59,665 nt of DNA from an uncultured Nitrososphaerota archaeon (GTDB lineage Archaea; Thermoproteota; Methanomethylicia; Nezhaarchaeales; WYZ-LMO8), in the NCBI GenBank assembly GCA_964586135.1, contig CAZPGS010000002.1, positions 1 to 59,665 of the forward strand. The letters are read 5' to 3'. The notes under the pieces were generated by a model. That model worked only from the letters and a program-made list of their open reading frames with translations, did not search any database and was not told the DNA's origin. Positions 162-52,773 of the stretch are shown here, in pieces (the stretch's first letter is position 1; each line of letters begins with the position of its first letter). The position numbers were made by a program, and so were the translations under genes.

Positions 162-1502
162 TTGTCGTACGACGTCCTCCACGTGGGAGTGGATAGCGTC
201 GACTCTTGGATGGGCGGCTGTACAACCCACTTCGTCTTCGAGGTCTTGAGAGACGTCGCGAACCGGCTTGACGTCAAATTGCTAGACTACCCTCTGCTGG
301 TGAGGCTAAACCCCAACATCCCTTGGAGGACGCGGGGCAACGGTGCCGTGTGCTTGAGGTTAAAGATCCGGAGCAATGAGATCACGACTTTCGAGAAACT
401 GCTTGAGCTAAAGCTTAGGAGCTACACCGACAAGTCCTACGACTGCGACCCCGTAATAGCCTTGCTCTACGGAGAGGGTCACGAAGGTCTCTCAAACTTC
501 TACGAGAAGGCCCTGACCCGCGTAGTGGCGTTGCAAGAGGCACTAGACCTAGCGAAGAGGCACGACGTCAAAGTAATCAAGACTAGGAGTGGCTTGGGGC
601 TCATAGGGGCACTAGCAGCAATAGGCTCCCTGGCGGAGGGGGACTACACATACGAAGTACTGGCCTATAGAGAAGAGGGAGCTCCTAGGCTCGTAGACCA
701 CGACAGCGTCTGGGCCTTGGAGTTTGAGACGTGGCCTTACACATTCAACAACATCGATCCCGAGACGGGGAGGGTGCTCTTGACCCCTCGCGGTCCCGAC
801 CCTGTCCTCTATGGGATTAGAGGGGAGGACCCTGGGACGCTGATGAGGGCTCTAAGGACTCTTAGGGTCTACACAAAGACCGTGGGCCGCTTGCTGTTCA
901 GAAGCAATCAGGGGACGGACTGCCACTACATGAGTGTGAGGGACATAGAAGAGGTAGAGCCCTACTCCTCAATATCTATCAAGGGGAGGGTGGCGTCTAA
1001 GCCCATAGTCATGAGGGGTGGGCACGTGATCTTCAAGCTATCGAGCGGCGGGAAAGAGATTTACTGTGCTGCCTACAAGCCATCGGGCACCGTGAGGGAT
1101 GTAGCTGAGAGGCTCGTGGTCGGCGATGAGGTCGAGGTGTGCGGAGGGGTGAGGAGGTTTCCGGGCTTAGAAGCTCTATCCCTAAATGTAGAGAGGCTCG
1201 TGGTCTTAAGGGCAGAGGAGGAGGTCGAGGAGGAGAACCCTCCATGTCCGAGGTGCGGGAAGAGGCTTAAGAGCATGGGGAGGTGCGGTGGTTATAAGTG
1301 CAAGAGGTGCGGGTTCAAGAGCGTCGACGCCTGCAAACCACTCTTTAGGCGCTCAAGGAGTAAGGTCGAGGGTGTGTACACGCCCCCGCCTAGGTCGATG
1401 AGGCACTTGGCTAAGCCTCTTAGGAGATACGGCCTCGAGAAAAAAGGGCTTTATGAGGGCGAGGAGATGGAGTTAAGGAGGGCCCTAACACTTGAGCGGT
1501 GA
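162..1502 (+). CDS. tiaS: tRNA(Ile2) 2-agmatinylcytidine synthetase TiaS
   Basis: 446-aa ORF with a TTG start. The N-terminal motif VGVDSVDSWMGGCTTH matches the TiaS/DUF1743 GxDDxDS..GCTT signature. A central OB-like region and a C-terminal zinc ribbon (CPRCGKRLKSMGRCGGYKCKRCG) are present. Confidence 0.85.
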   Translation: MSYDVLHVGVDSVDSWMGGCTTHFVFEVLRDVANRLDVKLLDYPLLVRLNPNIPWRTRGNGAVCLRLKIRSNEITTFEKLLELKLRSYTDKSYDCDPVIALLYGEGHEGLSNFYEKALTRVVALQEALDLAKRHDVKVIKTRSGLGLIGALAAIGSLAEGDYTYEVLAYREEGAPRLVDHDSVWALEFETWPYTFNNIDPETGRVLLTPRGPDPVLYGIRGEDPGTLMRALRTLRVYTKTVGRLLFRSNQGTDCHYMSVRDIEEVEPYSSISIKGRVASKPIVMRGGHVIFKLSSGGKEIYCAAYKPSGTVRDVAERLVVGDEVEVCGGVRRFPGLEALSLNVERLVVLRAEEEVEEENPPCPRCGKRLKSMGRCGGYKCKRCGFKSVDACKPLFRRSRSKVEGVYTPPPRSMRHLAKPLRRYGLEKKGLYEGEEMELRRALTLER

Positions 1503-1686: not shown

Positions 1687-1965
1687 CTACCCCCCACCAG
1701 CCGGCGGAAATATGGAGATGGTAGAGCCGTCCCTGAGCTTAGCCCTCAACCCTCCGAGAAACATGCAATCTCTCCCGTCCACCAAGACTTTCAAATAACT
1801 CTTCAAGTCCTCTCCTTCAAAAATCAGCTCCTTGACCTCGGGCTTCTGATCGACTAGCGACTCTAGCAGTTGCCCCACAGTAGAGTCTTCAGCAAGTTCC
1901 ATCTCGATACTCTTCCAGCCCATGACATTTCTCAAAAAGCCGTAGACTTCTACCTTGACTTTCAA
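1687..1965 (-). CDS. MoaD/ThiS-family ubiquitin-like small protein (SAMP-like)
   Basis: 92 aa with beta-grasp-like sequence and a C-terminal ...SIFPPAGGG ending typical of the MoaD/ThiS/SAMP family. It is divergently transcribed from the tungstopterin-type AOR gene. Confidence 0.7.
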   Translation of the reverse strand: MKVKVEVYGFLRNVMGWKSIEMELAEDSTVGQLLESLVDQKPEVKELIFEGEDLKSYLKVLVDGRDCMFLGGLRAKLRDGSTISIFPPAGGG

Positions 1966-1995
1966 GAGGGCCCCTTCAACTATCTCCTTAAAAAC

Positions 1996-2004
1996 TTTAA
2001 AAAA
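1996..2004 (+). promoter_or_regulatory. TATA-like box upstream of the AOR::HPS gene
   Basis: TTTAAAAAA lies about 32 nt upstream of the TTG at 2036. That start gives an N-terminus (M)GGYVGRMLEVDL that aligns with AOR-family N-termini. Confidence 0.35.
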
Positions 2005-2035
2005 TTTGAGGGAGAAAAAGCCTTGGGGACCAAGG

Positions 2036-4534
2036 TTGGGCGGCTACGTCGGAAGGATGCTTGAAGTGGACTTAACGAGGGACAATGTAGCGGTCATAGA
2101 CTTAGATTGGGACGTGGCCATGAAGTTCGTGGGTGGTAGGGGCTATGCGGTAAAGCTGCTCTTCGATCTATTGAGGCCGGGTATTGATCCGTTAAGCGAG
2201 GACAACATCTTAATATTCATGACCGGGCCCCTAACCGGTACTAGGGCTCCAGCATCAGGTAGATTCGTGGTATCTTCTAAGTCACCTCTAACGAACACCG
2301 TCTTCGATTCTCACTGCGGAGGGGCTTGGGGTCCTGAGTTGAAGAGAGCCGGCTTCGATGGAGTAATAATCAAGGGGAAGAGCCCTAGACCGGTGTACTT
2401 GTTCGTGAGCCACGGCAAGGCCGAGATACGTGACGCGAGCAGAATGTGGGGCCTCGAAACGGACGCCACAACAGATGCTATTAAGAGAGATATAGGGCTT
2501 GACGACGTCAAGGTCTGTTGTATAGGTCCCGCTGGCGAAAACCGAGTAAAGTTTGCCTGCATAATAAGCGAGAGGCATAGAGCTGCTGGAAGAGGCGGCC
2601 TAGGTGCGGTAATGGGCTCCAAAAACCTGAAGGCTATAGCGGTCAAGGGCACGGGCGAGGTCACGGTCGCAAACCCCAAGGCGTTTAACGAGGAAGCCAA
2701 GAAGGCTCTGGAGGTCTTAAGGGGGAACCCGATAACAGGAGACAGCCTAGGGCGCTACGGGACGGCGTTCCTCGTGCACTTGATGAACAAAGCAGGCGTA
2801 TTGCCATCGTACAACTTCACGCGGGGCTTCTTTGAGGGGGCCGAGGACGTGTGCGGTGAGAGGATCACGGAGACCATGCTCGTGAAGAGAACGGCCTGCT
2901 ACGGCTGTCCGATAGCCTGTGCTCGCCTGATAAAGTACAAGATCGGCGAAGAAGTTGTGTCCTCTGGGCCAGAGTACGAAAGCGTATGGGCCTTAGGGCC
3001 GAATTGCGGAATATGGAATGTAAACGTCATAGTACGAGCAAACGATCTGTGCAATAAGTTGGGCTTGGACACGATTTCGATGGGTAACGTGATAGGGTTC
3101 CTCATGGAGTGCCACGAGAGGGGGCTTTTAAAAGGGCTTGGCGAGGTCGACCTAAAGCTCAATTTCGGCAACTCCGATGCGCTGTTGAAATTAATTGTGG
3201 ACACGGCCTACAAGAGGGGGCTCGGTGCGCTGGCGAGCGAGGGGGTCAGCAGAATAGCGAAGACCCTTGGCGCAGAGGACATGGCCGCTCACGTGAAGGG
3301 GCTCGAGCTACCAGCTTACGATCCGCGAGGGGCCAAGGGGATGGCACTAGCCTACGCCACCTCCAACAGGGGGGGTTGCCACTTGAGGGCTTACGTCGTG
3401 ATGAGCGAGATACTCGGAGTCCCTAGATACATAGACCCCTTATCGTATGAAGGCAAGGCCGAGCTGGTCAAGAGGCTCCAAGATGTCTCGGCGGTGATAG
3501 ACTCGCTTGTGATGTGTAAGTACACCATGTTGGCGCTTTTCTCAACGCTAGCTTACGAGCCGACGCACTACGCAAGGCTCCTGACGACGGCAACGGGCTT
3601 CTACGTCGATGAAGAAGAGTTTTACAAGGTGGGGGAGAGGATTTACAACCTCGAGAGGCTGTTCAACATCAGAGAGGGATTCGGTAGGCCTCACGACGTC
3701 CTACCCCTAAGGTTCTTGAGGGAGCCGCTAAGAGAGGGCCCTGCTAAGGGAGAGGTCGTTGACTTAACGAGACTCCTCGACGCCTACTACATGGTCAGGG
3801 GTTGGAACTACGACGGAGTACCGATGGACAAAAAGCTTCGCCAACTAGGCCTGGAGCCCTTGTACACAGGGCCTAAACTTCAAGTAGCAATAGACGAGAG
3901 GTACTTAAAGGACGGCTTGAGCATAGCAGAGGCCTGCTACAGAGGAGGGGCCGAGATCCTCGAAGTTGGGACGCCCCTCATAAAGTCCGCTGGCCTAGAG
4001 GCCGTGAGAGAGTTTAGGAGGAGGTTCCCCTACGCTACAATAGTCGCTGATTTGAAGACCTTCGATACCGGCTGGTTAGAGGTCGAATTGGCGGCCGAAT
4101 CGGGGGCCGACGTAGTGACAGTGCTGGGGGCAACCGACGACTATACGATCAAAGACGCCGTAGGCGCAGCTAGGAAGTACAATGTCAAAATAATGTGCGA
4201 CCTGATAAATGTTCCAGACCCCCTCACTAGGGCCAAAGAGGTGGAGAGGCTTGGATGCGATATAATATGCGTTCACATGGGCATAAGCGTGCAAATGAGG
4301 GAGAGAGACGTGACCAAGAAGATGGCCATGCTCAAGGAGATAGTCAAGAGCGTCAAGGTCCCTGTGGCTGTAGCGGGCGGCGTAAGGCTTGAGCACGTGG
4401 ACGACTTGGTAAGGTGCGGTTGCAAGATAATAATCGTGGGCTCGGCGATAACTAGGTCTTCCAGCCCCGAAGAGGCCACGAGAAGGTTTATAGCGACAAT
4501 ACGAGGGGCTTACGAGGGGCTCAAGAGCTCTTAG
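2036..4534 (+). CDS. Fusion protein: aldehyde/formaldehyde ferredoxin oxidoreductase (AOR family) N-terminal part plus 3-hexulose-6-phosphate synthase (HPS) C-terminal domain
   Basis: Single uninterrupted frame. The N-terminal roughly 610 aa carry AOR-family hallmarks (GGYVGRMLEVDL, FVGGRGYAVKLL, 4Fe-4S ligands in TACYGCPIAC, and the C-terminal YYMVRGWNYDGVP). From about nt 3875 the sequence KLQVAIDE...ILEVGTPLIK...VADLKTFDTG...GADVVTVLG...ICVHMGISVQ...AVAGGV...IIVGSAIT matches HPS/OMP-decarboxylase-fold HxlA-type enzymes. The longest ORF starts at 1955, but TTG 2036 (or ATG 2057) fits homologs better. Confidence 0.85.
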   Translation: MGGYVGRMLEVDLTRDNVAVIDLDWDVAMKFVGGRGYAVKLLFDLLRPGIDPLSEDNILIFMTGPLTGTRAPASGRFVVSSKSPLTNTVFDSHCGGAWGPELKRAGFDGVIIKGKSPRPVYLFVSHGKAEIRDASRMWGLETDATTDAIKRDIGLDDVKVCCIGPAGENRVKFACIISERHRAAGRGGLGAVMGSKNLKAIAVKGTGEVTVANPKAFNEEAKKALEVLRGNPITGDSLGRYGTAFLVHLMNKAGVLPSYNFTRGFFEGAEDVCGERITETMLVKRTACYGCPIACARLIKYKIGEEVVSSGPEYESVWALGPNCGIWNVNVIVRANDLCNKLGLDTISMGNVIGFLMECHERGLLKGLGEVDLKLNFGNSDALLKLIVDTAYKRGLGALASEGVSRIAKTLGAEDMAAHVKGLELPAYDPRGAKGMALAYATSNRGGCHLRAYVVMSEILGVPRYIDPLSYEGKAELVKRLQDVSAVIDSLVMCKYTMLALFSTLAYEPTHYARLLTTATGFYVDEEEFYKVGERIYNLERLFNIREGFGRPHDVLPLRFLREPLREGPAKGEVVDLTRLLDAYYMVRGWNYDGVPMDKKLRQLGLEPLYTGPKLQVAIDERYLKDGLSIAEACYRGGAEILEVGTPLIKSAGLEAVREFRRRFPYATIVADLKTFDTGWLEVELAAESGADVVTVLGATDDYTIKDAVGAARKYNVKIMCDLINVPDPLTRAKEVERLGCDIICVHMGISVQMRERDVTKKMAMLKEIVKSVKVPVAVAGGVRLEHVDDLVRCGCKIIIVGSAITRSSSPEEATRRFIATIRGAYEGLKSS

Positions 4535-6224
4535 CCGAGCTATCCGAGGCAGTCGACCTCTTGAGCCTGTGCTCCAGGCATGCCTTAACGAAGCCGTAGA
4601 ACAGAGGCGAAGGCCTATTTGGCCTCGACTTGAACTCTGGATGGGCCTGCGTCGCCACGAAGAATGGATGATCCTTAAGCTCGATGAATTCGACCCTTCG
4701 ATTATCAACGCTATACCCCGAGAAGACCATGCCGTAGCTCTGGAGGAGCGACCAGTAAGCAGGGTTTATCTCGTATCGGTGTCTGTGCCTCTCAAATATT
4801 ATCGGCCTGCCATAAAGCTCGTAGACTTTAGTTCCGGGCTCGAGGACCGTGGCTTGGGCTCCCAACCTCATCGTCCCGCCGACCTCTTTGACGTGATATT
4901 GCTCCGGCAACAAGTCCACGACGGGGTGACTAGTGGATGGATCCAGCTCTGTTGTGTTTGCGTCCTTAAGGCCCACGACGTTCCTCACGAACTCCACAAC
5001 AGCTAATTGCATACCAAAGCATATACCCAAAAAGGGGATCTTGTTCTCCCTTGCATACTTAATCACCTTCATCTTACCTTCAGCGCCGCGTGCTCCGAAG
5101 CCCGGCAGGACTACTATGCCGTCGCACGAGCTCAAAATCTCTTGGTACTCTCTTGGTATCTCCTCGCCTTGGTCGAGCGGTGTAGCCTCAAGCCAGGTCA
5201 TGTTAACCTTAGTCTCGAGGGCAGCCCCTGCATGCTTTAAGGCCTCTATTATGCTAATGTAGGAGTCCTTCAACCTCGTGTACTTGCCGCACATGCAAAC
5301 ATTGACTTCATGCTTGTGGAACTTGTGCCTCCTCACCACTTCCTTCCAAGAAGACCAGTCCGCCTTGGCGCCATCCAACATCAATCGCCTACAGATGTAG
5401 TCACCCATCCCTTGTTCGTCTAGTATTATTGGTAGCTCGTATATGCACTCGATGTTGTAAGAAGTGAAGACGGCTTCCTCACGGACGTTGCTGTAAAGCG
5501 CTATCTTCTTCTTAGATTCCTCGTCTAGTGGGTACTTACATCGTGCTACTATTACATCGGGCTGTATGCCAATACGCCTGAGCTCTTGCACGCTATGCTG
5601 GAGGGGCTTCGTCTTGAATTCTCCGGTCACCTCAAGTATTGGCACGAGGGCCACGTGTACGAAGAGGGTGTTCGAAGGGCTCTCCTCAAGCCTCATCTGC
5701 CTGATGGCCTCGAGAAATGGGAGGCCCTCTATGTCCCCCGTAGTGCCCCCACACTCAACAAGGGTCACGTCTGCATGGCTTCTCTGAGCTACAGATCGTA
5801 TTCTCCTCTTCACCTCATCAGTTACGTGCGGTATTATTTGCACGCACTTGCCGAGGTACTTGCCCTTTCTCTCGGCCTCTATGACTGCCATGTAGACCTG
5901 TCCCGTCGTGATGTTGTTGTCCTTTGAGAGGTCTATGTCGAGAAAACGCTCGTAGTGGCCAAGATCTAGGTCTACTTCACCTCCATCTTCTGTCACAAAG
6001 ACCTCGCCATGCATGTATACCCGGCTCTAAGCACGAGGCTTAGAGCCTATGGGTTCATGGTTCCTGCATCGACGTTTATGTCTACCCGGCCCACGGGCCT
6101 ATGGGTCTATCTTTATCGCCGTTACCGAGAAGCCCTTGACTCGTAACATCTTACCTATCGATGCTGTCACGGCTCCTTTGCCTACGCCCGACAGGACACC
6201 TCCCGTAATGAATATGTACTTCAT
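4521..6224 (-). CDS. pyrG: CTP synthase, interrupted by two predicted micro-introns
   Basis: Exons on the minus strand are 6224..6101, 6081..6049 and 6016..4521, totalling 1653 nt (550 aa). Exon 1 encodes [41 protein letters not shown], exon 2 (Y)[10 protein letters not shown](Y), and exon 3 [24 protein letters not shown]... through the glutamine amidotransferase domain (GICFGMQ, HRHRYE). The continuous ORF 4521..6014 alone lacks the universal N-terminal P-loop region. Confidence 0.9.
6017..6048 (-). other. predicted BHB micro-intron 2 of pyrG (32 nt)
   Basis: RNA sequence is A-GGCUCUAAG-CCUCGUG-CUUAGAGCC-GGGU-AU. A 9-bp hairpin is flanked by the 4-bp helix ACCC(exon)/GGGU(intron) and two 3-nt bulges AUA/AUA. 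The outer helix is CAUG/CAUG. Cutting after the second nt of each bulge gives the AAC CCA UAC AUG CAU junction (NPYMH). Confidence 0.75.
6082..6100 (-). other. predicted BHB micro-intron 1 of pyrG (19 nt)
   Basis: RNA sequence is A-GGCC-CGUG-GGCC-GGGU-AG. A GC hairpin is flanked by the 4-bp helix ACCC/GGGU and the 3-nt bulges AUA and AGA. Cutting after the second bulge nt gives the GAC CCA UAC AUA AAC junction (DPYIN). The outer exon-exon helix is weak (relaxed HBh' type). Confidence 0.7.
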
Positions 6225-6851: not shown

Positions 6852-6918
6852 TACATTCTTACACCTGAGTTATAGAGCATCTAAGCAAGTTTAAAAATAC
6901 TGACTTCGCTACTATTCG

Positions 6919-7452
6919 GTGTGCAAAACCAGGATAATAATACTAAGATACGGCCATAGGCCCACGCGGGATAAAAGGGTCAGCACGCATTTGGCCCTCG
7001 TAGCTCGAGCCTTCGGAGCCCACGAAGCATGGTTTGACACGAAGGATGAGGGCTTAGAGAGGAAGATAGCCCAGGTGAACGAAACTTTCGGCGGAAGATT
7101 CGCCGTAAAGACAGGCATAGACTTGGTGAAGGCGATAGCGAGGGCTAAGAGGGAGGGCTCCTGCGTAGTACACTTGACGATGTACGGCATACCCTTGCCC
7201 CAAGTTATAAAAGAGATCAGGGGCAAGGACAAGCTGTTGGTGCTCGTGGGAGGGCCTAAGGTCCCTAAATACTTCTATGAGGTGGCCGACTACAACGTCT
7301 CCATAACAAATCAACCTCATAGTGAAGTGGCCGCCCTGGCGGTGTTCTTGGACTGGTTCTACGGAGGAAGAGAGTTTAACTTTAAGTTTGAGGGAGGGAG
7401 GATCGAAGTCGAACCCTGTGAGAGGGGCAAAAAGGTCAGGGTATTAAGGTGA
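6919..7452 (+). CDS. trm56: tRNA (cytidine56-2'-O)-methyltransferase aTrm56 (SPOUT)
   Basis: GTG start. LRYGHRPTRDKRVSTHLALVARAFGA and the NQPHSEVAALAVFLD motif match the aTrm56 family. Confidence 0.85.
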   Translation: MCKTRIIILRYGHRPTRDKRVSTHLALVARAFGAHEAWFDTKDEGLERKIAQVNETFGGRFAVKTGIDLVKAIARAKREGSCVVHLTMYGIPLPQVIKEIRGKDKLLVLVGGPKVPKYFYEVADYNVSITNQPHSEVAALAVFLDWFYGGREFNFKFEGGRIEVEPCERGKKVRVLR

Positions 7453-7461
7453 ACAGAAGGT

Positions 7462-8550
7462 TTGGAGAAGGCCGTAATAGTCGGGGTCTTTAAGAAAAGC
7501 GATGACTTCAGGTTGCACGAAGTTGAGGAACTGGCGAAGAACAGCGGGTACCTCATAGTCGACAAGGTCATCCAGATAAGGAGCAACCCGCACTCAGGCT
7601 ACTTGATAGGACCAGGAAAGCTCCAAGAACTCAAAGGCAGGCTGAAGAAGTACGGAATAAGGACTGTGCTCTTCGCCAACGAGCTGAGGCCCGGACAGTA
7701 CTTTAGGTTACAAAAAGAGCTGGGACTCGACGTGAACATACTGGACAGGGTGTTGTTGATCCTCGACGTCTTCGACAAGAGGGCTTCCACTTCAGAGGCT
7801 AAGCTCCAAATTGAGCTCGCGAGGCTGAAGTACACACTACCTTGGGCGCGGGAGCTTGCGAGGCTGAAGGGCTTCGGTAGTGAGAAGATGGGGTTTGGGT
7901 CCCTCGGAGGCTACCCGTACAAAGTCTACATATCGTTTGCCAAGAAGAGGGTTAAAGCAATAGAAGAGAAGTTGGAGAGGCTGAAGAAGAGGCAAGAAGA
8001 AATAGTAGTTCGACGCAAAGAAGTCGACTTGCCCATAGTCGCCTTGACTGGCTATACGCAAGCTGGTAAGACTACCCTCTTCAACCTCCTGACCAAAGAA
8101 AGTAAGGTGACTGGACTGGGGCCTTTTACGACGCTGGAGACATGCGCTAGGAGAGTCGACGCCTACGGCAAGAGCTTCATAATCGTGGACTCTCTCGGCT
8201 TTATCGATGAAATGCCCCAGCTAGTGCTGAATGCCTTTCACGCTACGCTGGTAGAGCTGAAGTTGGCCGACGTAATAACGTTGCTCGTAGACGCCTCAGA
8301 AACGCCTTCGAGCATGGAGAGGAAGCTTAAGACTTCCCTTTCAATTATATCCGAGGTGGCGGGCGACGACAAGCATCTAATCGTAGCTGTCAACAAAATA
8401 GACCTGGTAGGTGATTCCAGACTTGAGAACTCCATTAAGCTCGTAAAAAGGTTGGCTATTCACTGCGATATCGTGCCCGTAAGCGCTAAGAAATCGGTTA
8501 ACGTAAGCTTTCTCTTAAAGAAAATTGTTGAGAAGTTGGAGAAAAGCTAA
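7462..8550 (+). CDS. hflX: GTPase HflX
   Basis: TTG start. It has an HflX N-terminal domain (LFANELRPGQYFRLQKELG, LILDVFDKRASTSEAKLQIELARL) and a G-domain P-loop (GYTQAGKTTLFNLLT) plus NKIDL. Confidence 0.9.
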   Translation: MEKAVIVGVFKKSDDFRLHEVEELAKNSGYLIVDKVIQIRSNPHSGYLIGPGKLQELKGRLKKYGIRTVLFANELRPGQYFRLQKELGLDVNILDRVLLILDVFDKRASTSEAKLQIELARLKYTLPWARELARLKGFGSEKMGFGSLGGYPYKVYISFAKKRVKAIEEKLERLKKRQEEIVVRRKEVDLPIVALTGYTQAGKTTLFNLLTKESKVTGLGPFTTLETCARRVDAYGKSFIIVDSLGFIDEMPQLVLNAFHATLVELKLADVITLLVDASETPSSMERKLKTSLSIISEVAGDDKHLIVAVNKIDLVGDSRLENSIKLVKRLAIHCDIVPVSAKKSVNVSFLLKKIVEKLEKS

Positions 8551-9091: not shown

Positions 9092-9616
9092 GTGGCCCCG
9101 TTGAGCGAGAGGTTCCTAGTCGAGCTAGTGAAGATGCGCGCCGACTATCAGTTTGGGCCAGGGGCCGGAGAAGGGCTGGTTTCAAGGGGAATAAGAGTGG
9201 AGGTCTCAAAAAGGACAGGAAAACCGCGATACGTCTACGACTCTGATGGTAGGCTCTTGGCAACAATTAGATGGAGCGACGGGTTCTTAGCTTTGACGCT
9301 TGAAGGGGCTCGCTTACTAAAACAGCACTTAAAGCCGCCAAGGCTTAGAGTAGTGATCAAAAACGACGTCAGAGACTTCGTAAAAGAAGGGAGGAGTGTT
9401 TTCGCAAAGCATGTCATCAAAGTAGATCCTGAAATCCGATGCGGTGATGAGGTCATAGTGGTAGACGAAGAAGACAACTTACTCGCTGTCGGTCGCGCAG
9501 TGCTGTCAAGTTATGAAATGCTAGCATTTAATTCAGGCGTAGCAGTAAAAGTGAGGAGAGGTGTGGGGAGTGAAGATAAGCCCGAGAGAGCTACAGAAGA
9601 TGCTACAAACAGTTAG
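9092..9616 (+). CDS. PUA domain-containing RNA-binding protein
   Basis: 174 aa. The C-terminal half (VIKNDVRDFVKEGRSVFAKHVIKVDPEIRCGDEVIVVDEEDNLLAVGRAVLS...GVAVKVRRG) has the PUA-domain pattern. The exact family is not resolved. Confidence 0.65.
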   Translation: MAPLSERFLVELVKMRADYQFGPGAGEGLVSRGIRVEVSKRTGKPRYVYDSDGRLLATIRWSDGFLALTLEGARLLKQHLKPPRLRVVIKNDVRDFVKEGRSVFAKHVIKVDPEIRCGDEVIVVDEEDNLLAVGRAVLSSYEMLAFNSGVAVKVRRGVGSEDKPERATEDATNS

Positions 9617-10637: not shown

Positions 10638-11720
10638 GTGAGAGCCTCGCTGTGTATAATATACGACGACATCTTCATGAAGCACAATCCCGACCCATAC
10701 CATCCCGAGAGCCCTCGAAGGCTCGCGGAGATAATCAAAGAGCTCAACGGAAGAGGGGTTCTCGCCAAAGTTAAAGTGGAGAGGGCTGTTAAGGCCTCGC
10801 TAAGTGACGTGGTGAGGGTCCATGATGAGGACTACGTCAAGTACGTAGAGAGGGCCATTGCAAGCGGCGCGAGATACGTAGATCCCGACACTCAAGTGTC
10901 AAAGGAGAGCTTCGAGGTGGCCCTTTACGCTGCGGGCTCCAGCATATACGGTTGCGAAAAGGTCTTGAACGATGACTTCGATGTCTGCTTCGTGTTAGAG
11001 AGACCTCCAGGGCATCACGCGGGTAAGGCTGGTGCTGCCTTGGGGGCCCCAACACTAGGCTTCTGCCTCTTCAACAACGTCGCCATAGCAACGAAGCATT
11101 TGATCGAAGAGCGCGGACTGAAAAGGATAGCCATATTCGACTTCGACTGCCATCACGGTAACGGCACGCAAGAAATATTCTATCGAGACGGGTCGGTCCT
11201 TTACATAAGCACTCACCAAGATGGTAGGACGGCTTACCCAGGCACGGGATTTGTTGACGAAGTGGGAGAGGGGGAGGGAAGAGGCTACAACGTCAACGTC
11301 CCACTTCCACCCCTTACAGGCGATGACGTCTACGAAGAGGTCTTAGAGAAAGTTGTGGGTAGACTGCTAAAAGAATACAGGCCAGAAGTCTTGTTGTTGT
11401 CAGCAGGGTTCGACGCGCATAAAGACGATCCGTTGACGTCCATGGGCCTCTCGCTGAACTCGTACGTCAAGATAGCCGAGCTCGTCAAGGGGCTCATGAA
11501 CGAAGGGATCACGAAAAAAGCCGTCTTCGTACTCGAAGGGGGCTACGGCCCAGGGCTTGCATGGGGGGTTTACGACATAATAGCATACTTCATTGGTATG
11601 CCGTTGATAGAGGAGGGCAAGACGACCTCTTCTGAAAGAGTGAAGAGGGAAGGCTTAAAAGTGGTGAGCGAGGTCTACGAGAAGGTTTTGAGGCCCTACT
11701 GGGGGATTGAGGCTTGTTAA
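10638..11720 (+). CDS. histone deacetylase-family protein (AcuC/acetylpolyamine amidohydrolase-like)
   Basis: GTG start. HPESPRRL, ERPPGHHAG, FDFDCHHGNGTQ and LEGGY motifs of the class I/II HDAC superfamily. Confidence 0.85.
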   Translation: MRASLCIIYDDIFMKHNPDPYHPESPRRLAEIIKELNGRGVLAKVKVERAVKASLSDVVRVHDEDYVKYVERAIASGARYVDPDTQVSKESFEVALYAAGSSIYGCEKVLNDDFDVCFVLERPPGHHAGKAGAALGAPTLGFCLFNNVAIATKHLIEERGLKRIAIFDFDCHHGNGTQEIFYRDGSVLYISTHQDGRTAYPGTGFVDEVGEGEGRGYNVNVPLPPLTGDDVYEEVLEKVVGRLLKEYRPEVLLLSAGFDAHKDDPLTSMGLSLNSYVKIAELVKGLMNEGITKKAVFVLEGGYGPGLAWGVYDIIAYFIGMPLIEEGKTTSSERVKREGLKVVSEVYEKVLRPYWGIEAC

Positions 11721-12729
11721 CGGTGGTCGTCGGAGGCTTCTTTGGAGACGAGGGAAAGGCCTCGGCCCCCTAGAAGGGAAGATATGCGCCTATCTCTCAT
11801 TAAAAGATGACGTAAAGGTCGCCGTTAGGACTGGCTCGGTAAACGCCGGCCACACGGTGGTCTACAACAATAAGGAGTACAAACTAAGAATCGTGCCCTG
11901 TGGGTTCGTAAACCCACGTGCTACGCTGTGTATAGCCGCAGGGGCCAACGTGAGGATCGACGTCTTGATGAAGGAGCTGGAGCTCACGAACACCAAGGGC
12001 CGGTTGAAAATAGATCCTCAAGCATCCATAATCGAAGACGAGCACGTAAAGAGGGAGAGGGAAGATCAGTTCCTCATCTCCAAGATAGGCTCGACGGGGC
12101 AGGGGGTCGGGGCAGCAGTAGTCGACAGGGTCAGGAGAGTGGCTAGGCTCGCTCGCGATGTGAAGGAGCTAAGCGAGTACTTGGACGACGTGTCCATGAT
12201 CGTCTGGAGGGCATTGCAACAAGGCCAAAACGTGCTACTCGAGGGCACGCAGGGATACTACCTGTCCCTATACCACGGAACATATCCCTATGTCACGAGC
12301 CGGGACACGACGGCCTCAGCCGTCTGTAGCGAGGTGGGCATAGGCCCCAAAATAGTTGACGAGGTCGTTGTAGTCTTCAAGACTTACGTAACAAGAGTTG
12401 GAGGGGGGCCTCTACCAGGCGAGCTCCCGGAGGAGGAGGCAGAGAAGCTGGGGCTGGTTGAGGTAGCAACGGTGACTGGGAGGAGGAGAAGGGCCGCTCC
12501 CTTCAACTTTGAGCTGGCGAAGAGGGCCGTCATAGCCAACAGCGCAACTCAAGTAGCTCTGACGAGAATTGACGTGCTGTTTCCATCAGCTTCAAGGGTC
12601 AGGAAGTACGATGAGTTGCCGCGTGAGGCGAAGGAATTCGTTGGAAAAGTAGAAGATGAGCTAAAGGTCCCCGTGACCATACTCAGCACAGGCCCTGACG
12701 TCTTTGACACCATAGACCTGAGAGACTAA
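11714..12729 (+). CDS. purA: adenylosuccinate synthetase, interrupted by a predicted 17-nt micro-intron
   Basis: Exons 11714..11756 and 11774..12729 (999 nt). Exon 1 (TTG 11714 or GTG 11723) encodes (M)LTVVVGGFFGDEGK and exon 2 continues GKICAYLS...SVNAGHTV...TGQGVGAAVVDR...GTQG. The spliced junction restores the PurA P-loop GDEGKGK. The longest-ORF start (TTG 11707) yields an out-of-frame N-terminus, MRLVNGGRRRLLWRRGKGLGPLE. Confidence 0.9.
11757..11773 (+). other. predicted BHB micro-intron of purA (17 nt)
   Basis: RNA sequence is A-GGCC-UC-GGCC-CCCU-AG. A GC hairpin is flanked by the 4-bp helix AGGG(exon, 11751..11754)/CCCU(intron, 11768..11771) and the 3-nt bulges AAA and AGA. Cutting after the second nt of each bulge gives GAG GGA AAA GGG AAG (EGKGK). 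The insert contains an in-frame TAG. Confidence 0.7.
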
Positions 12730-18599: not shown

Positions 18600-19985
18600 G
18601 AAAGTACAGACATAGCTACAGCGAGAAAGTCATCGACTTTGTCAAAGAGGTCATGAGAGAATATGGGCCCCGACTCGCTGAAAGCGAGGCCGAGTTGAAG
18701 GCTGGCGAGCACGTATATAAGCTAATGCCCAAGTTTTGCGATGAGGTCCAGAAGGATTGATTCACTTCAAGGCCGAGAGGGTTTACGGGCTACATATGGG
18801 TCGTATTCTTCCTTTGCCTCCTCGGTACAGCACTGTATTTCATGGGCTTTTGGTTTGTAATATTTGTCCTCACCCTCTTCGAATTATCGAGATTTGTCCT
18901 TCACCAATGCCTACACTATGAGGTTGTTGACCTCCTATTCCCGAGGGCCCAAGAGTTCCACATCGTTGATAGGACCTTTCCGTCGGGAACTCCGAAGAAT
19001 AAAATCCTACTCTCCGCCTGCTACGATTCTCCATACGAGTTCCCACTATTGAGTAGGCTGAGGATGAGGCCGCCACTCCTTATACTATCAACAGTAGCGA
19101 TGGTCGTTATCACGGGTTTCTTAGGACTGTTAAGGTACTTTTACGATGTCGATGCGATTCAAAGGCCAATGCTGATCGTAAGCGCGTGCCTTCTCTTCGT
19201 GCTTGCTGCGCTTCGAGGTCCAACAAGGTATTCCTGGCTCAAACGACGATCTCGCTGGCGTTGGAGTTGTTCTTGAAGCTGGGAGATATCTCAGCACGAA
19301 TAGGTTAAAGAATACCGAGGTTTGGATCGTCGTGTTTGCCGGAGAAGGGCACATGCGAGGTTCGAAGAGGTTTGTCAAAAAATACTTCGATAAGCTCAAG
19401 GACTCGATTCTGTTTAACTTTAAGCGCCCCTCTCGTGAGTACTTCTTAGTTGCCACCGAAGAAAGGCTGTTCTTCGCCAAACACCCTCAAAGGGCCGTAG
19501 AGATAGCAAAGAGGGCTTGTGAGAGGGTCGGCGCTAACTTCAAGGTCGGTCCCTTGCCGTTTGCGGGTGGTGATGCGGCGAACTTTTTGAGGAAAGGCCT
19601 TCATGCTGTGACGATGTTTGGCTTACTGTTTGTCCCTAAATGCTCATCCTCATTAGTCTATTTCTATTCGTCGCATCTAGGGATTTCCGCCTCGCGCGCT
19701 ATTAGCGCGGTTCGTGGGCGTTCGAGCCCAACGGCACGGGACTCCCACCTACCTCCGCCCCGCCCAGGCTCGGAGCGCCGCTCCCATCGCCTGAGCGGGC
19801 TCTGAGCAATAAACGGTATCAGAGCTTCAAACTCAACATCTAAACATCAACTACGAAACAGCCCAGACGGTGCTCCATATTGCTGGCACACGCTTGAAGA
19901 TATGCCAGAAAAGCTAAAACCGGCCTCTATCACGAAGGCCGTAGAAATAGCGATCGAGATGGCAAAGTTAGTAGATGAGTCGTAA
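18600..19985 (+). pseudogene. M28-family (Iap-like) membrane-associated metallopeptidase, disrupted
   Basis: Recognisable segments are EKVIDFVKEVMREYGPRLAESEAELKAGEHVY, ILLSACYDS, IPGSNDDLAGVGVVLEAGRYL, GGDAANFLRKGLHAV and WHTLEDMPEKL...VDES*. Lesions are: no start codon in frame, an in-frame TGA at 18758..18760, a frameshift between about 19180 and 19215, and an in-frame TGA at 19803..19805 inside a GC-rich insert. Confidence 0.7.
19681..19807 (+). other. GC-rich structured insert inside the M28 pseudogene (tRNA-like T-arm/hairpins)
   Basis: This stretch is compositionally distinct (very GC-rich) within a roughly 45% GC gene. Hairpins are CGCGC-GCUAUUA-GCGCG (19693..19709), UGGGC-GUUCGA-GCCCA (19715..19730, T-arm-like GUUCGA loop), CAGGC..GGAGC-GCC-GCUCC..GCCUG, and a long-range GAGCCC/GGGCUC pairing. 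Confidence 0.4.
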
Positions 19986-29192: not shown

Positions 29193-30416
29193 ATGAAAGG
29201 CTATGTCGTGAGTAACTTCGTGGGCTTTCTGCTCTGCGACGAGAAGGGGGAAGTAGTCGAAAAGGTGTTGTTTCCCAAAGACCCTGGAGAGCTGGCTAAC
29301 AGGTTCTACTCGTTGAGCAGAGGAGAGGTCGTCGACGAAGTCAGAGAGCTTTGCGAAAAGACTCGAAAGCTTAATTTCGACGTGCTCGTGGTAGAAGATC
29401 CTAAGATCGCGCGAATGCTCGTCGCTTCAGGATTCCAAGAAGTTAGAGTGGAGGGCCCCAATAAAGTGGCCAAGCTCGTGAGGGCCCGTATGTTGGACCT
29501 TGCGGTCAAGCTGGGTTACGCACAAAGCGAAGAAGAGGCCTTGTCAATTCTTCAAAAAGTTGCCTCGGACTTGAGCGCTAGAAAAATAGTCGAAGCGGTC
29601 GAGAAAAGGGATCTCCTCGTCGCTCAAGCCGTTTCGTGCATAGATGAAGTCGAGAAGATGTTGAACGTATTGGCTTCAAGATTAAGGGAGTGGTATGGGG
29701 TTCACTTTCCAGAGCTCGGCAATGTCATCAAAGATCATGAGGATTTCGTAAAAGCGCTAACGATCATAGGTCATAGAGATAACGCGAAGAAGCCTGAGGT
29801 CTTGGAAAAGCTCGGCCCCTTGAGGGACAAGGTAACTAAGGTGTTAGAGGGCAGTCCTTCTCTTGGAGCTAACGTCCTTCAAAAGGACATAGAAATAATG
29901 AAGGAGGTGGCCTCGGCGACCCTGAGGCTCTACGAGCTCAATGAGAAGCTTAGAAAGTACGTTGACGAGGTCATGAGCGAGGTCGCTTCCAATACAAAAG
30001 AGCTCATAGGTCCAGTCTTAGGAGCACGATTAATAGCTCTTGCTGGAGGATTAGAGAGGCTTGCAAAGCTGCCAGCAAGCACCATTCAACTTCTCGGAGC
30101 CGAAAAAGCCCTTTTCAGAGCACTTAGAACAGGAAGCAAGCCGCCTAAGCATGGCATAATTTTCCAGTACCCCGAGGTGTACAGATCGCCCAAGTGGCAG
30201 AGGGGCAAGATAGCCAGAGCACTGGCCGGGAAAATAGCGATAGCTGCTAGAGTGGATTACTTCACAGGAGAGTACATAGCCGATGAGCTTAAGGAAGACT
30301 TGAAGAACAGGATAAAGGAAATAAAGGAGGTTTACAAGGCACCGCCTAAGAAAGTTGCAGAGAAGAGGGCGGAGAAGAGGGCCCCTAAAAAGGCTAAGAG
30401 GACAGGGGGAGAGTAG
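29193..30416 (+). CDS. nop5: C/D box sRNP core protein Nop5 (Nop56/58)
   Basis: 407 aa with the Nop domain (AEKALFRALRTGSKPPKHGIIFQ) and a lysine-rich C-terminal tail. It is followed directly by fibrillarin. Confidence 0.95.
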   Translation: MKGYVVSNFVGFLLCDEKGEVVEKVLFPKDPGELANRFYSLSRGEVVDEVRELCEKTRKLNFDVLVVEDPKIARMLVASGFQEVRVEGPNKVAKLVRARMLDLAVKLGYAQSEEEALSILQKVASDLSARKIVEAVEKRDLLVAQAVSCIDEVEKMLNVLASRLREWYGVHFPELGNVIKDHEDFVKALTIIGHRDNAKKPEVLEKLGPLRDKVTKVLEGSPSLGANVLQKDIEIMKEVASATLRLYELNEKLRKYVDEVMSEVASNTKELIGPVLGARLIALAGGLERLAKLPASTIQLLGAEKALFRALRTGSKPPKHGIIFQYPEVYRSPKWQRGKIARALAGKIAIAARVDYFTGEYIADELKEDLKNRIKEIKEVYKAPPKKVAEKRAEKRAPKKAKRTGGE

Positions 30417-30419
30417 CTC

Positions 30420-31109
30420 ATGAGAGTGAGGCTTCACGAAGACATAAGCGGGGTTTACGTAGTGGAAATGGAAGACGGAAGCACGAGGCTAGCGACTCGC
30501 AACCTAGCCCCTGGCATCAAGGTTTACGGTGAAATGCTCATTAAGTACGAAGACGTGGAGTTAAGGGTATGGGACGCTTATAGGTCTAAGCTCGCGGCGG
30601 CTTTCATGAAGGGTTTAAAGACTTCGCCTCTCGTCGATGGAGCGCGAGTCCTCTACTTAGGAGTTGCGTCTGGGACCACGTGCTCTCACATCTCTGACAT
30701 GATAGGTCATAGAGGTCGCGTTTACGGAGTTGAGTTCTCACCTAGGGTTATGAGGGAATTTCTGGAGAGGGTCGCCAGGTTTAGGAAAAACGTTGTTCCA
30801 ATATTGGCGGACGCCCGCCTACCAGTCGAGTATGCGTACTTAGTAGAAGAAGTCGACGTAATATATCAAGACGTGGCTCAACCATATCAAAGCAAGATCC
30901 TCGTTGACAACGCGGACTTTTACTTAAAGAAAGGCGGTTGGGCCTTCTTGGCGATAAAGGCTAGAAGCATAGACGTCACCAAAGAGCCTTCAGAGGTCTA
31001 TAAGAAGGAGATAGAGACCTTAAAGGACGGTGGCTTTGAGATAGTTAACGTTGTGCACTTGGAGCCCTACGACGTCGACCACGCAATGATACTAGCGCGT
31101 AGGACGTGA
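30420..31109 (+). CDS. flpA: fibrillarin-like rRNA/tRNA 2'-O-methyltransferase
   Basis: 229 aa. [17 protein letters not shown] (SAM motif), VYGVEFSPR and ILADAR motifs. Confidence 0.95.
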
Positions 31110-31570: not shown

Positions 31571-32541
31571 GGAGGCAAGAGGTGCCCCTAGAGAGCGTGA
31601 TAGCGAAGATCGTGGAGTTGCTGTACGAAAAGGGCCTTGAAATGTCAAGGCCTTACATTAATGAAAGGAGCTCTATAAACATAGTCGCTAGAAGCGGGGA
31701 TAAATTGCTCCTAATCAAGGCACTAAATCATGCCAGCGAGTTGAGGAGCTCTTGCGCCGCGGAGATCAAGAAAGCAAGTTACGCCTTAAGAGGTTCACCG
31801 CTTGTCGTCAGCGAAAGGGATGGATCTCATGAAATAGATAAAGAGTCGGTTTATGAGAAGCAAGGGCTCTACATCGTTCACCCCGAAGCTCTGAGGGACT
31901 ACTTTGAAGGAAGGAGACAATATGTGTACCATAAGGGTGGCAGGTTCTACGTAAAGATTAACGGCAAAAAGTTAAGGGAAATTCGAGAGAGCATCGGCTT
32001 ATCGCTGGGCGGATTAGCAAGCCTATTGGGCGTTACAAGGAAGGCAGTTTATGAATATGAGAAGGAGGAAATGGATGCTACGATCGACGTTGCTTCAAAG
32101 CTATATGAAATCCTCAACAGGTATGTGGGTGAGGAGGCCCTGCAAGCATTCAAGCCTATAGACATCCTCGACAAAACGCTTTCTATAGAAGACAAAGGGA
32201 GCCGGAGAAGTGAAGGCAGCAAGTCGAGGCTTCAAGAAGAAGTGGCCCTAAAGCTGTCAAGGTTAGGATTTTCGATATTCCAATTTAGGGAGGCCCCGTT
32301 TAACATCATAGCTAAGAGAAATGGGGAGAGAGGGAGGACGCTACTAATTTTAACGCTAGAGGCTTTTAGCAACAAGTTCAGAGAAGAATTAGAAGTTCTT
32401 CGAGAAGTAGCAGAAGTCGCTAGGGTTAAGAAGCTAGTCGTGACGCGAAGGGCTTCCCTAGAAGAGGGGGTAATAAGCGCTAGGGAGCTTGACGACATGT
32501 CCAGCCCCGAAGAATTAATTGAAGTTGCGTCATTCGGTTAG
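31567..32541 (+). CDS. putative HTH (Xre/cro-C1 type) transcriptional regulator, archaeal ~320-aa family
   Basis: 324 aa with a central HTH: LREIRESIGLSLGGLASLLGVTRKAVYEYEKEE. The architecture matches the conserved archaeal 'putative HTH-type transcriptional regulatory protein' family. Confidence 0.7.
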   Translation: MRRQEVPLESVIAKIVELLYEKGLEMSRPYINERSSINIVARSGDKLLLIKALNHASELRSSCAAEIKKASYALRGSPLVVSERDGSHEIDKESVYEKQGLYIVHPEALRDYFEGRRQYVYHKGGRFYVKINGKKLREIRESIGLSLGGLASLLGVTRKAVYEYEKEEMDATIDVASKLYEILNRYVGEEALQAFKPIDILDKTLSIEDKGSRRSEGSKSRLQEEVALKLSRLGFSIFQFREAPFNIIAKRNGERGRTLLILTLEAFSNKFREELEVLREVAEVARVKKLVVTRRASLEEGVISARELDDMSSPEELIEVASFG

Positions 32542-33696
32542 CAGTTTAATTAAATCTACGATGTCACCACTAAATCTAAACCCCTTGGGATTGAAGTGCG
32601 TTGGAGTGGCATGGAAGCCTTGAGAGAGGAGCTTCTCGATCAGCTTCTGCATCTTTGGTTGCTTTAGCTTGTACTTATGTGAGAGGGCGTCTACGGTGTA
32701 AAAAGTCGGAGGACCATCTGCTTCGCTCGTTATCAACTTTAGGACTCTCTTGAGCGCTTTCTCGCTAGGCAAGTCCAAAGAACTCACTACTTTACTGACC
32801 TCTTCGCAAAATGCCTTGTCAAATATGGGGCCTATCCACAGAGGGCCAGCGATCTCCATGGGAGAGCCGCACTTCTCACATGAGCTTTTCATCAATGCCA
32901 TGTCTTCGAGTTTCACGACGTACCTGTGCAGGCAGTTGCGACAGTGGTATACTAAGCCGATGTTCTCTTGGCCCTCCTTAGAAGAGACCAACTGGGCGAA
33001 GACTCTAATGTAGTGTCTTGTGCTATTGACAATTAATGGCTTTATTGATAACTCGTACTTTCCAGACTCTCTGCATAGCAGGCCTAGTACAAGCCTAACT
33101 GCAAGCTCGTGGCAATACTCAGTCCTCAGGGAAAGGCCCCCGTACCTCCTCAACGCCACATGAGGGTAAACACCACATAGAGGAGGCATGTCTGTGGCGG
33201 TTAGGGCTATTACGCCACCCAAAACCGTTGACCTAATGGCCGAGTCCACGTAAGGTGCAGGCGAGCCGAAGGGGTCTATATCGACGAAGTCGAACCTCTT
33301 TCCCTTGACGTTATACCTCGACAACAAGGAGTTAGCGTTTGAAAGCTTTACTATGACCTTCTTGTGGACTTGATTCAAGAAAGCGTTGATCCTCGCGGTC
33401 CTCACGGCCACCGGGTTGACGTCTGATAACACTGCTTCTTCTACTTCTTCGACTTCTTTGGCATATCTGATGCCTCTGACTCCGCTCGCCGTTAATGGCT
33501 CTGCCACTCGCAAGTCTTTCTTCCCAATAACATTTGCATAAGCCTTTAATACGCAAATAGATAGGTCGCGCGAAAAAGACATGACAGGATTGTAGAATAC
33601 TGCCTTTCTAGCCTCCTCCCCTAAGACTGCTCTATCTGGTAGCAGAAGCTTAACCTTGCCTTCGTATAGGAGCTCGAGAGGCATTTTTATGCTCAT
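32530..33696 (-). CDS. trm1: tRNA (guanine26-N2)-dimethyltransferase Trm1
   Basis: 388 aa. VFYNPVMSFSRDLS, LTASGVRGIRYA, DIDPFGSPAPY and a Cys-rich insertion (CRNC...CEKCG). Confidence 0.9.
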   Translation of the reverse strand: MSIKMPLELLYEGKVKLLLPDRAVLGEEARKAVFYNPVMSFSRDLSICVLKAYANVIGKKDLRVAEPLTASGVRGIRYAKEVEEVEEAVLSDVNPVAVRTARINAFLNQVHKKVIVKLSNANSLLSRYNVKGKRFDFVDIDPFGSPAPYVDSAIRSTVLGGVIALTATDMPPLCGVYPHVALRRYGGLSLRTEYCHELAVRLVLGLLCRESGKYELSIKPLIVNSTRHYIRVFAQLVSSKEGQENIGLVYHCRNCLHRYVVKLEDMALMKSSCEKCGSPMEIAGPLWIGPIFDKAFCEEVSKVVSSLDLPSEKALKRVLKLITSEADGPPTFYTVDALSHKYKLKQPKMQKLIEKLLSQGFHATPTHFNPKGFRFSGDIVDLIKLLTE

Positions 33697-33720
33697 GGCC
33701 TTTAGCTCGCTTGTTTCGCA

Positions 33721-34359
33721 TCAATTACCTAAATTTACTCTCTCCTCGCCGCCACCTCGAAAGCCTATACATATTAGATATATTTCTCTGCTCCTCGGTC
33801 GCGAGGCCTTGGGCTTAAAAACACGCACCCTTTCAAACAATTGTCGTAGCTTCAATAAAATGTCATCGAGCTCGCTTCCTTGAAAAGCCTTTATTACGGC
33901 TACCCCTCCTCTTTTGAGCAACTTATTGGCAAGCTTGATCACGCATTGAATTATGTGTTCGTGCTGCGCCATATCAGTTGTCCATACGCCCGTCAACTTC
34001 GGCGAGGCGTCAGACAATATTACGTCGACTTTGTCAAGCACAATCTTCGCGAGCTCCTCATGTAAGCTCTCGTTACAAACGTCCCCCACCACCGTCTTGA
34101 CGTTAGGCCTTCCAAGCTTTTTAATGGACCTAATGTCTACCCCTATTACAAGGCCGCTAGGACCAGTCGCTTGAGAGGCTACTTGTAGCCATCCTCCAGG
34201 ATAAGCCCCTATGTCCAAAACCACCTGTCCCTCTTTAATTACGTTAAATCTCTCAATTATCTCAATCAGCTTAAAAGCGGCGCGAGACCTAAAGCCCAAA
34301 CTCTTCGCCATCTTGCAATAATGATCCCTTGACCTTTCAATCTTCCATCTTCTCGACAT
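33721..34359 (-). CDS. rlmE: 23S rRNA (uridine-2'-O)-methyltransferase RlmE/FtsJ
   Basis: 212 aa. RSRAAFKLIEI, VLDIGAYPGGWLQV, ILSDASPKLTG and VIKAFQG. Confidence 0.9.
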   Translation of the reverse strand: MSRRWKIERSRDHYCKMAKSLGFRSRAAFKLIEIIERFNVIKEGQVVLDIGAYPGGWLQVASQATGPSGLVIGVDIRSIKKLGRPNVKTVVGDVCNESLHEELAKIVLDKVDVILSDASPKLTGVWTTDMAQHEHIIQCVIKLANKLLKRGGVAVIKAFQGSELDDILLKLRQLFERVRVFKPKASRPRSREIYLICIGFRGGGEERVNLGN

Positions 34360-35669: not shown

Positions 35670-35944
35670 CTCACATCATCCCCTACGCCCTTCGAAGTAG
35701 AAGTCACGTAAACCTTCTTGATACGCCTTAAATCATCGAGGGCTATTTTGCTCGAGGGTTTTATCAATATATAGGGCGATGAGATGGGCCCTATGACGTC
35801 GTAAACTAAGCCTATGACACGACTCTTGCCGTCGTAAACCGATTCACCTATTTTTGGAATGGCCTTAGAAGAGCTCTTAACCACGAATTTCTTGCTCTTA
35901 GACAGGTGAAGTGCCAATCCTAGAAGAGTCAGGGACCCCCTCAT
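35666..35944 (-). CDS. gar1: H/ACA RNP protein Gar1
   Basis: 92 aa. IGESVYDGKSRVIGLVYDVIGPISSPYILIKP matches the Gar1 core. Its stop overlaps the tfb start by 4 nt. Confidence 0.85.
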   Translation of the reverse strand: MRGSLTLLGLALHLSKSKKFVVKSSSKAIPKIGESVYDGKSRVIGLVYDVIGPISSPYILIKPSSKIALDDLRRIKKVYVTSTSKGVGDDVR

Positions 35945-52758: not shown

Positions 52759-52773
52759 TTCCCGAGCACCTCG

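Follow-up and report, generated by a model that had tools for sequence, protein, structure and literature searches.

The purA gene, encoding adenylosuccinate synthetase, occupies 11714..12729 (+) of a 59,665-nucleotide (nt) stretch of DNA from an uncultured hot-spring Nitrososphaerota archaeon of the Nezhaarchaeales lineage (Methanomethylicia, Thermoproteota; contig CAZPGS010000002.1, GenBank assembly GCA_964586135.1), here called the window. Its coding sequence is interrupted by 17 nt at 11757..11773 that are, on the pattern of the sequence, very probably an archaeal bulge-helix-bulge (BHB) intron. The body open reading frame (ORF; 11707..12729, +) scores as adenylosuccinate synthetase without the N-terminal GTP-binding loop (P-loop), and the loop, VVVGGFFGDEGK, is encoded in the frame of GTG 11723 and TTG 11714. 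From TTG 11714, the gene translates as MLTVVVGGFFGDEGK and then meets TAG at 11771-11773, the remainder lying in a different frame. Cutting out 11757..11773 (AGGCCTCGGCCCCCTAG) leaves GAC GAG GGA AAA GGG AAG ATA, which encodes GDEGKGKI; GDEGKGK is the GTP-binding loop of adenylosuccinate synthetase. The spliced protein would have 332 residues (MLTVVVGGFFGDEGKGKICAYLS...), with a junction that joins GGA-A to AA-GGG-AAG-AUA. Deletion of the 17 nt raises the Pfam PF00709 score from 232 to 257 bits, and residues 3-332 of the spliced product align with residues 4-337 of the Pyrococcus horikoshii PurA structure 2d7u (E = 1e-101), gap-free at the junction. The original prediction, made from the letters of the window, had placed the loop and the body of PurA in separate frames and had derived GDEGKGKI by removing these same 17 nt. 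The ORFs, the PF00709 gain and the end-to-end alignment bear out both claims.

As start codon, either GTG 11723 or TTG 11714 had been proposed. The start is TTG 11714 and not GTG 11723. At the former position, 11 of 12 clade sequences have a start codon, be it TTG, GTG or ATG (L006 has ACT), whereas relatives have the non-start codon GTA at the latter. Exon 1, which has a 7-nt overlap with the stop of the upstream gene of the deacetylase family, is under purifying selection in its own frame; pairwise codon differences there number 357 synonymous and 70 nonsynonymous.

The insert has the core anatomy of a BHB element, two 3-nt bulges on opposite strands around a 4-bp helix. As predicted, the helix is AGGG/CCCU and the bulges are AAA and AGA. 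The inner hairpin had been drawn as GGCC-UC-GGCC, but a 2-nt loop cannot form and the hairpin is thus GGC-CUCG-GCC, with 3 bp and a CUCG tetraloop. Deletion of 11757-73, 11758-74 or 11759-75 yields an identical PurA protein, so the boundaries at 11757-73 are fixed only by the cut rule, after the second base of each bulge, which was derived from the geometry of tRNA BHB introns (PMC4090602). The purA core is of the relaxed HBh′ type known from Crenarchaeota and from cbf5 introns (PMC4090602, PMC2738675). The peptide that distinguishes the spliced junction is GKGKICAYLSLKD; the N-terminal tryptic peptide ending in GDEGK is not diagnostic of splicing, since the unspliced mRNA encodes GDEGK too.

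Conservation of the insert across purA loci

We gathered 160 purA loci from one-genome-per-species contigs and Joint Genome Institute metagenomes. Of 148 loci, 24 (about 20 distinct sequences) have an insert at this position, and the other 124 have an uninterrupted GDEGKGK. The carriers, which come from different projects and assemblers, are Nezhaarchaeales-like and Methanomethylicales-like genomes and one Bathyarchaeota genome. In the clade of the window (75-97% identity) all 14 loci have the insert, and the closest loci belong to metagenome-assembled genomes (MAGs) labelled Candidatus Nezhaarchaeota, Nezhaarchaeales or Methanomethylicota. The inserts are 16, 17, 18, 21, 22, 28 or 30 nt long, seven lengths that span all three classes modulo 3, and share one consensus build of exon (A/G)GGG, AAA, hairpin, CCC(U/C) and A(A/G)A. 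Cuts placed behind the second base of each bulge, as the original prediction had deduced, would restore GDEGKGK(I/V) in 24 of 24 insert loci and at all seven lengths. Every insert also contains a stop in the frame of exon 1, including those with the in-frame lengths of 18, 21 and 30 nt.

The same interruption is visible in public gene calls. Database homologues at 76-97% identity all miss the first residues of the spliced PurA, and those at 67% identity or less cover them fully. The calls P0001, P0002, P0004, P0006, P0011 and P0012 begin either at a frame-wrong start (LRLVNGGRRR...) or at an internal methionine (MCAYLSL...) and have no P-loop. Thus, purA is systematically misannotated in public databases for the clade of the window. 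Because these purA calls are without the P-loop and pyrG is split (see below), metabolic reconstructions of these MAGs may count the synthesis of purines and pyrimidines as defective.

The base pairing of the element is maintained across loci. In alignment A1, which holds only the core (the central helix and three outer hairpin pairs, seven pairs in all), 99.2% of cells are paired compared with 90.8% in shuffles, and none of 500 shuffles reaches the observed value. The central helix is 98.6% paired across loci, and the intron-side helix, which measures 3-9 bp, is 100% paired. The covariation score of A1 is 0.284; shuffles give 0.109, with none of 500 as high, and slid controls at most 0.07. 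Sliding the partner strand by 1-3 columns lowers pairing to 40-72%. Both sides have changed in three of the seven pairs, and two of the three pairs of the h′ helix show compensatory changes. Examples include AGGG/CCCU versus GGGG/CCCC in the central helix, and GGC/GCC versus GCC/GGC (L147, L149) and GUAGAG/CUCUAC (L056).

The exon side is constrained as well. The Glu-Gly codons are GAG-GGR in all 21 intron-bearing loci scored but in only 19 of the 103 that have no intron (Fisher p = 4e-13, phylogeny uncorrected); on this comparison the exon codons that build the helix are fixed only in the presence of the insert. For the Nezhaarchaeales-like clade and the Bathyarchaeota locus, the codon phase of the intron is 1 (helix AGGG); for the Methanomethylicales-like genomes it is 2 (helix GGGG). 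The intron must either have slid by 1 nt or have been inserted independently. A rough neighbor-joining tree of PurA places the intron in four separate clusters.

Related inserts in pyrG and cbf5

The gene for CTP synthase, pyrG, lies on the opposite strand, about 5.6 kb from the purA insert, and harbors two inserts of its own (Table 1). The original prediction had assigned these the same architecture as the purA insert, and the sequence agrees with this. Excising both the 19-nt and the 32-nt insert gives an intact CTP synthase of 551 residues. Both are located within the identical exon word ACCCAU^ACAU (the caret marks the junction). In clade relatives the first is kept at 19-27 nt, with GACCC/GGGTC as inner helix in L005, and the second at 30-32 nt (L001-L005, L081-L084 and L086); for both, the loops vary and the stem changes are compensatory. 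The minimum-free-energy fold of pyrG does contain the helix-bulge-hairpin, one half of the BHB, at intron 1. Five Culexarchaeia-like loci are without these two inserts and have instead their own insert of 21-28 nt in SSVGK^G, built as GGGG-AAA ... CCCY-ARA. Its exon context, GGGAA^AGG, is the same as that of purA, and purA is uninterrupted in these Culexarchaeia-like genomes.

A scan for the BHB pattern had been proposed together with the original prediction, and its two forms gave different outcomes, with no enrichment for the generic form in the window (see below) and an excess of ORF-repairing matches for a stringent one. The stringent form, the only informative one, required bulges of the type A.A, a compact hairpin and an unspliced frame that is broken, and was run on 161 sequences totalling 1.9 Mb. 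It returned 278 compact BHBs, 37 of which repair a broken ORF, compared with 4% for random deletions (p = 2e-10), and 35 of these 37 are located in purA, pyrG or cbf5. The cbf5 matches, from Bathyarchaeota, are the known archaeal cbf5 pre-mRNA intron and served as the positive control of the scan. The remaining two represent a single AT-rich site of 23 nt (L024 2599-2621 and L046 606-628, +; UUAU-AAA-hairpin-AUAA-AUA), removal of which would extend an ORF of unknown function; this candidate may be a false positive. A looser filter on ORF repair in the window, admitting introns up to 120 nt, was swamped by false positives and was rejected.

Table 1. Positions of the putative introns, their structural elements and the flanking exons (window coordinates unless a locus is named)
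Feature	Position	Strand	Details
purA exon 1	11714..11756	+	TTG start; encodes MLTVVVGGFFGDEG and the first base of the Lys codon
purA intron (putative)	11757..11773	+	17 nt, AGGCCUCGGCCCCCUAG; in-frame stop UAG 11771-11773
purA exon 2	11774..12729	+	AA-GGG-AAG-ATA... to the stop codon
Central helix, exon strand AGGG	11751..11754	+	4 bp; pairs with 11768..11771
Central helix, intron strand CCCU	11768..11771	+	A-U pair becomes G-C in 5 sequences, G-U in 2, A.C in one (L001)
5′ bulge AAA	11755..11757	+	predicted cut after 11756; AAA invariant, 24/24 loci
3′ bulge AGA	11772..11774	+	predicted cut after 11773; A(A/G)A in 24/24 loci
Inner hairpin GGC-CUCG-GCC (h′ helix)	11758..11767	+	3 bp and tetraloop
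pyrG (CTP synthase)	4521..6224	-	exons 6224..6101, 6081..6049, 6016..4521
pyrG intron 1 (putative)	6082..6100	-	19 nt; Tyr codon of KIDP-Y-IN; ACCC-AUA-GGCC CGUG GGCC-GGGU-AGA
pyrG intron 2 (putative)	6017..6048	-	32 nt; Tyr codon of MNP-Y-MH; ACCC-AUA-10 bp hairpin-GGGU-AUA
Culexarchaeia-like pyrG intron (putative)	L007 4888-4913, L009 4862-4889, L010 4859-4882, L018 5325-5350, L093 4659-4679	- of each locus	
cbf5 insert, Bathyarchaeota	L045 369-387, L051 4515-4533	-	19 nt; GHGGTL^DP catalytic-Asp motif

Proposed splicing, alternative explanations and known counterparts

Removal of the purA intron from its pre-mRNA would most likely be the work of EndA, the tRNA splicing endonuclease, with RtcB rejoining the exons. 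In the pre-mRNA, the exon AGGG (11751-54) would pair with the intron CCCU (11768-71), leaving AAA and AGA as bulges and the GGC-CUCG-GCC hairpin as a prop. EndA, expected in Thermoproteota to be the broad-specificity α2β2 form, would then cleave after the second base of each bulge, and an RtcB-type ligase would link 11756 to 11774 to rebuild the Lys codon and bring GDEG-K-GKI into one frame. An unspliced purA mRNA would stop at the UAG of the intron and give no aberrant enzyme. The pyrG inserts of the window would act likewise, with exon ACCC pairing with intron GGGU. The pairing, bulges, frame repair, conservation, covariation and exon-codon constraint are read directly from the sequences; the enzymes, the chemistry of the cuts and the occurrence of splicing are inferred. 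The relaxed motif is cut by broad-specificity enzymes only, such as the α2β2 form of Crenarchaeota and relatives (PMC4090602, PMC2738675), and both a broad-specificity EndA (α2β2 or ε2) and RtcB are to be expected from the Thermoproteota lineage (PMC4090602). That splicing might gate or regulate the nucleotide-synthesis enzymes is pure speculation.

Several observations weigh against the intron reading. The generic BHB pattern (a 4-bp helix strand, 3-nt bulge, hairpin, complement and 3-nt bulge) matches the window 665 times, and 20 dinucleotide shuffles give 659 matches on average. The local fold of purA is not unusually stable (z = 0.5), and its minimum-free-energy structure differs from the BHB, which at 37 °C lies 2.8 kcal/mol higher (-10.3 versus -13.1 kcal/mol); at 75 °C the two are about equal. 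The exon-exon helix of the strict hBHBh′ form is absent, with G11750 opposite A11775 and no conserved pairing seen there, and the central helix of L001 (and of the identical L082) contains an A.C mismatch. The alignment used for the pair counts was trimmed and registered by the structure and is hence biased towards the BHB, while the sequences compared are related and neither the Fisher nor the shuffle statistics are corrected for phylogeny. Neither EndA nor RtcB is among the approximately 45 window ORFs scanned with Pfam. Finally, the case for a purA intron is one of DNA sequence, not of RNA or protein. As the BHB motif on its own is at chance level, the weight of the argument falls on exact frame repair and conservation. 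The reading as a BHB micro-intron in the P-loop codons withstands all the sequence-based tests applied.

These same two lines of evidence bear on the other ways in which the insert might be explained. The RNA could remain unspliced, with ribosomes either changing frame at the insert or skipping it in the way that they bypass 50 nt of phage T4 gene 60. The stop in or just after the gap and the hairpin at its start do superficially resemble gene 60, and cbf5 introns were formerly mistaken by others for frameshifting (PMC2738675). However, the insert lengths would demand shifts of +2, +1 and 0, with no single direction, and the in-frame inserts carry stops. Bypass fares no better, as landing from GGA on GGG drops the Lys-Gly of the P-loop, the move from AAG 11756 to AAG 11774 lands out of frame, and no codon pair around 11753-11781 reaches the purA frame without loss of P-loop residues. 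Moreover, conservation concerns a BHB whose pairing is kept by compensatory changes, not a slippery site. Recoding is therefore highly unlikely. That purA is a pseudogene, or the insert a meaningless indel or assembly artefact, is more improbable still. Indels or errors do occur in this assembly, as the window has a plain frameshift near 19210, absent from L081 and L086, in an M28-like peptidase gene. The purA insert, however, is found in 24 loci from different projects and assemblers, including all 14 purA loci of the clade; both exons are conserved as protein, with mostly synonymous change, and changes in insert length are always compatible with exact repair. The original prediction had judged random frameshift or sequencing error unlikely, and both are excluded by this recurrence and exact repair in independent assemblies.

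A third possibility is that the inserted RNA is conserved for some other function, for instance as a hairpin that blocks translation or acts in regulation, the cell making either an N-terminally truncated PurA from an internal start or no PurA. Internal starts such as MCAYLSL... are indeed predicted by gene callers, and the fact that both host genes, purA and pyrG, act in nucleotide synthesis invites a regulatory reading. But PurA without GDEGKGK has no GTP-binding loop, and the loop is kept in all 124 intron-less loci. In addition, exon 1 would not remain under purifying selection in a separate frame, and the geometry of the element is exactly that which gives a seamless junction. We regard such a role as very unlikely. 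A group I or group II intron or an intein was rejected, the insert being 17 nt long with no Rfam match above threshold at 11650-11850.

With splicing of a BHB intron as the preferred explanation, the closest counterpart is the intron of cbf5 pre-mRNA (Watanabe 2002; Yokobori 2009). According to PMC2738675, cbf5 introns are 16-44 bp long, often have a relaxed motif and disrupt the codon of a catalytic residue; some are in frame yet need splicing. The same text describes them as vertically inherited with gains and losses, as occurring in lineages with heteromeric EndA, and as hosted by Desulfurococcales and Sulfolobales. The purA introns resemble them in being of BHB type within a coding sequence, in size (16-30 nt), in the relaxed motif and in interrupting a codon of a catalytic motif, here the Lys codon of the P-loop. 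The purA and pyrG introns also match those of cbf5 in being sometimes in frame and in their gains and losses. They differ in their hosts, purA and pyrG with up to two introns per gene, which makes them a sister case and not the same intron; in their lineages, which are Nezhaarchaeales-like, Methanomethylicales-like and Culexarchaeia-like genomes and one Bathyarchaeota; and in the exon context GGGAA^AGG, which is occupied in two genes. Splicing of cbf5 has been proven by experiment, whereas that of purA and pyrG is predicted from sequence. As a separate observation, the cbf5 intron in Bathyarchaeota adds a lineage beyond the Desulfurococcales, Sulfolobales, A. pernix and Sulfolobus named in the available part of PMC2738675.

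The proposed excision of a short intron by a protein has a functional parallel in eukaryotic XBP1 and HAC1 mRNA, where the protein endonuclease IRE1 reads an RNA structure, a short intron (26 nt in XBP1) is taken out, RtcB-type ligation follows and the change of frame gives an active protein. The IRE1 system differs from purA in its endonuclease, in its twin stem-loop motif and in being a stress-regulated switch. This pathway is mentioned in PMC13149111 and PMC8718801. Archaeal tRNA BHB introns, which have median lengths of 12-25 nt, share with the purA intron the core, the size range, a central helix formed by exon bases and the 3′ part of the intron, and the presumed enzymes (PMC4090602). 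In contrast to them, including the non-canonical and multiple ones of Thermoproteales, the purA substrate is an mRNA that has no tRNA body or outer helix resembling the anticodon stem and in which the frame must be kept. A search of the window and 25 related loci with ARAGORN yielded no tRNA that contains an intron. The HVO_1309 mRNA of Haloferax volcanii, like purA, is an mRNA substrate, cut by the splicing endonuclease in vivo and in vitro, but its BHB lies in the 5′ untranslated leader whereas that of purA is in the coding sequence, and in its host, a euryarchaeon, the enzyme is strict in the substrates that it accepts (PMC7714728).

From 2020 to 2025, cbf5 was still cited as the sole archaeal coding sequence with a BHB intron (PMC7714728, PMC12397907). 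Our full-text literature search found no earlier report of BHB introns in purA or pyrG; Tocchini-Valentini 2011, which may deal with mRNA BHB motifs, lay outside that search. With the present introns, the range of BHB introns in coding sequences would grow by two central genes of nucleotide synthesis and by several lineages of uncultivated Thermoproteota, with two introns in a single gene, and the approximately 20 variants provide a comparative data set on what a broad-specificity endonuclease accepts outside tRNA. Cultured Methanomethylicia and Methanonezhaarchaeia exist (PMC12244365 and PMC12700198), making the splicing claim directly testable; the paper on Methanonezhaarchaeia cultivation makes no mention of transcriptomics or RNA-seq.

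The introns also raise the question of mobility between mRNAs. Two target words are seen, GGGAA^AGG, which spells the Gly-Lys-Gly codons of nucleotide-binding loops, and ACCCAU^ACAU. The former is used in purA, in three lineages and two codon phases, and in the Culexarchaeia-like pyrG, and the latter twice in pyrG. Further hints come from the window purA intron and pyrG intron 1, which share an AGGCC...GGCC body and differ mainly in CCCU versus GGGU, and from the four separate intron clusters on the rough PurA tree. We tentatively suggest, with more doubt than confidence, that BHB micro-introns might be a mobile family that inserts where a short exon word pairs with the 4-nt 3′ segment of the intron. 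Fujishima et al. 2010 reportedly proposed transposition of such introns between tRNA genes. If mobility is true, introns of the tRNA type would have colonized archaeal mRNAs much more frequently than cbf5, as a single case, implies.

Other features of the window

The original prediction had further suggested a genome-wide class of mRNA micro-introns. The sequence bears this out only in part, with three putative introns in two genes of the window; Pfam scans of approximately 45 further window ORFs gave full-length domains and no other split gene. The M28-like membrane peptidase gene (18761-19805, +) is broken into two frames, with a shift near 19205-19215 and no BHB. Its ORF is contiguous in the close relatives L081 and L086, which points to a plain frameshift mutation or sequencing error, unlike purA; the gene is also broken in L001. 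Two other candidate split genes were rejected, 6904-8550 being the separate genes for Trm56 and HflX and 35669-36767 the three separate genes for Gar1, SRP19 and S8e. Suspected split genes at 41784-42614 and 52790-53922 gave no family matches, and the regions 41700-42990, 44070-44850 and 52760-53830 contain short open frames only, with no Pfam or NCBIfam match.

At 1955-4534 (+), a single ORF of 859 residues encodes a complete aldehyde:ferredoxin oxidoreductase (AFOR_N and AFOR_C) fused to a C-terminal domain of the OMP-decarboxylase/hexulose-phosphate-synthase family. Genes for RNA modification and ribonucleoproteins are dense in the window (162-1502, 6904-7452, 9092-9616, 29193-31109, 32530-34359 and 35669-36004) and comprise TiaS, Trm56, an archaeosine TGT-related PUA-domain protein, Nop5 with fibrillarin, Trm1, FtsJ and Gar1.

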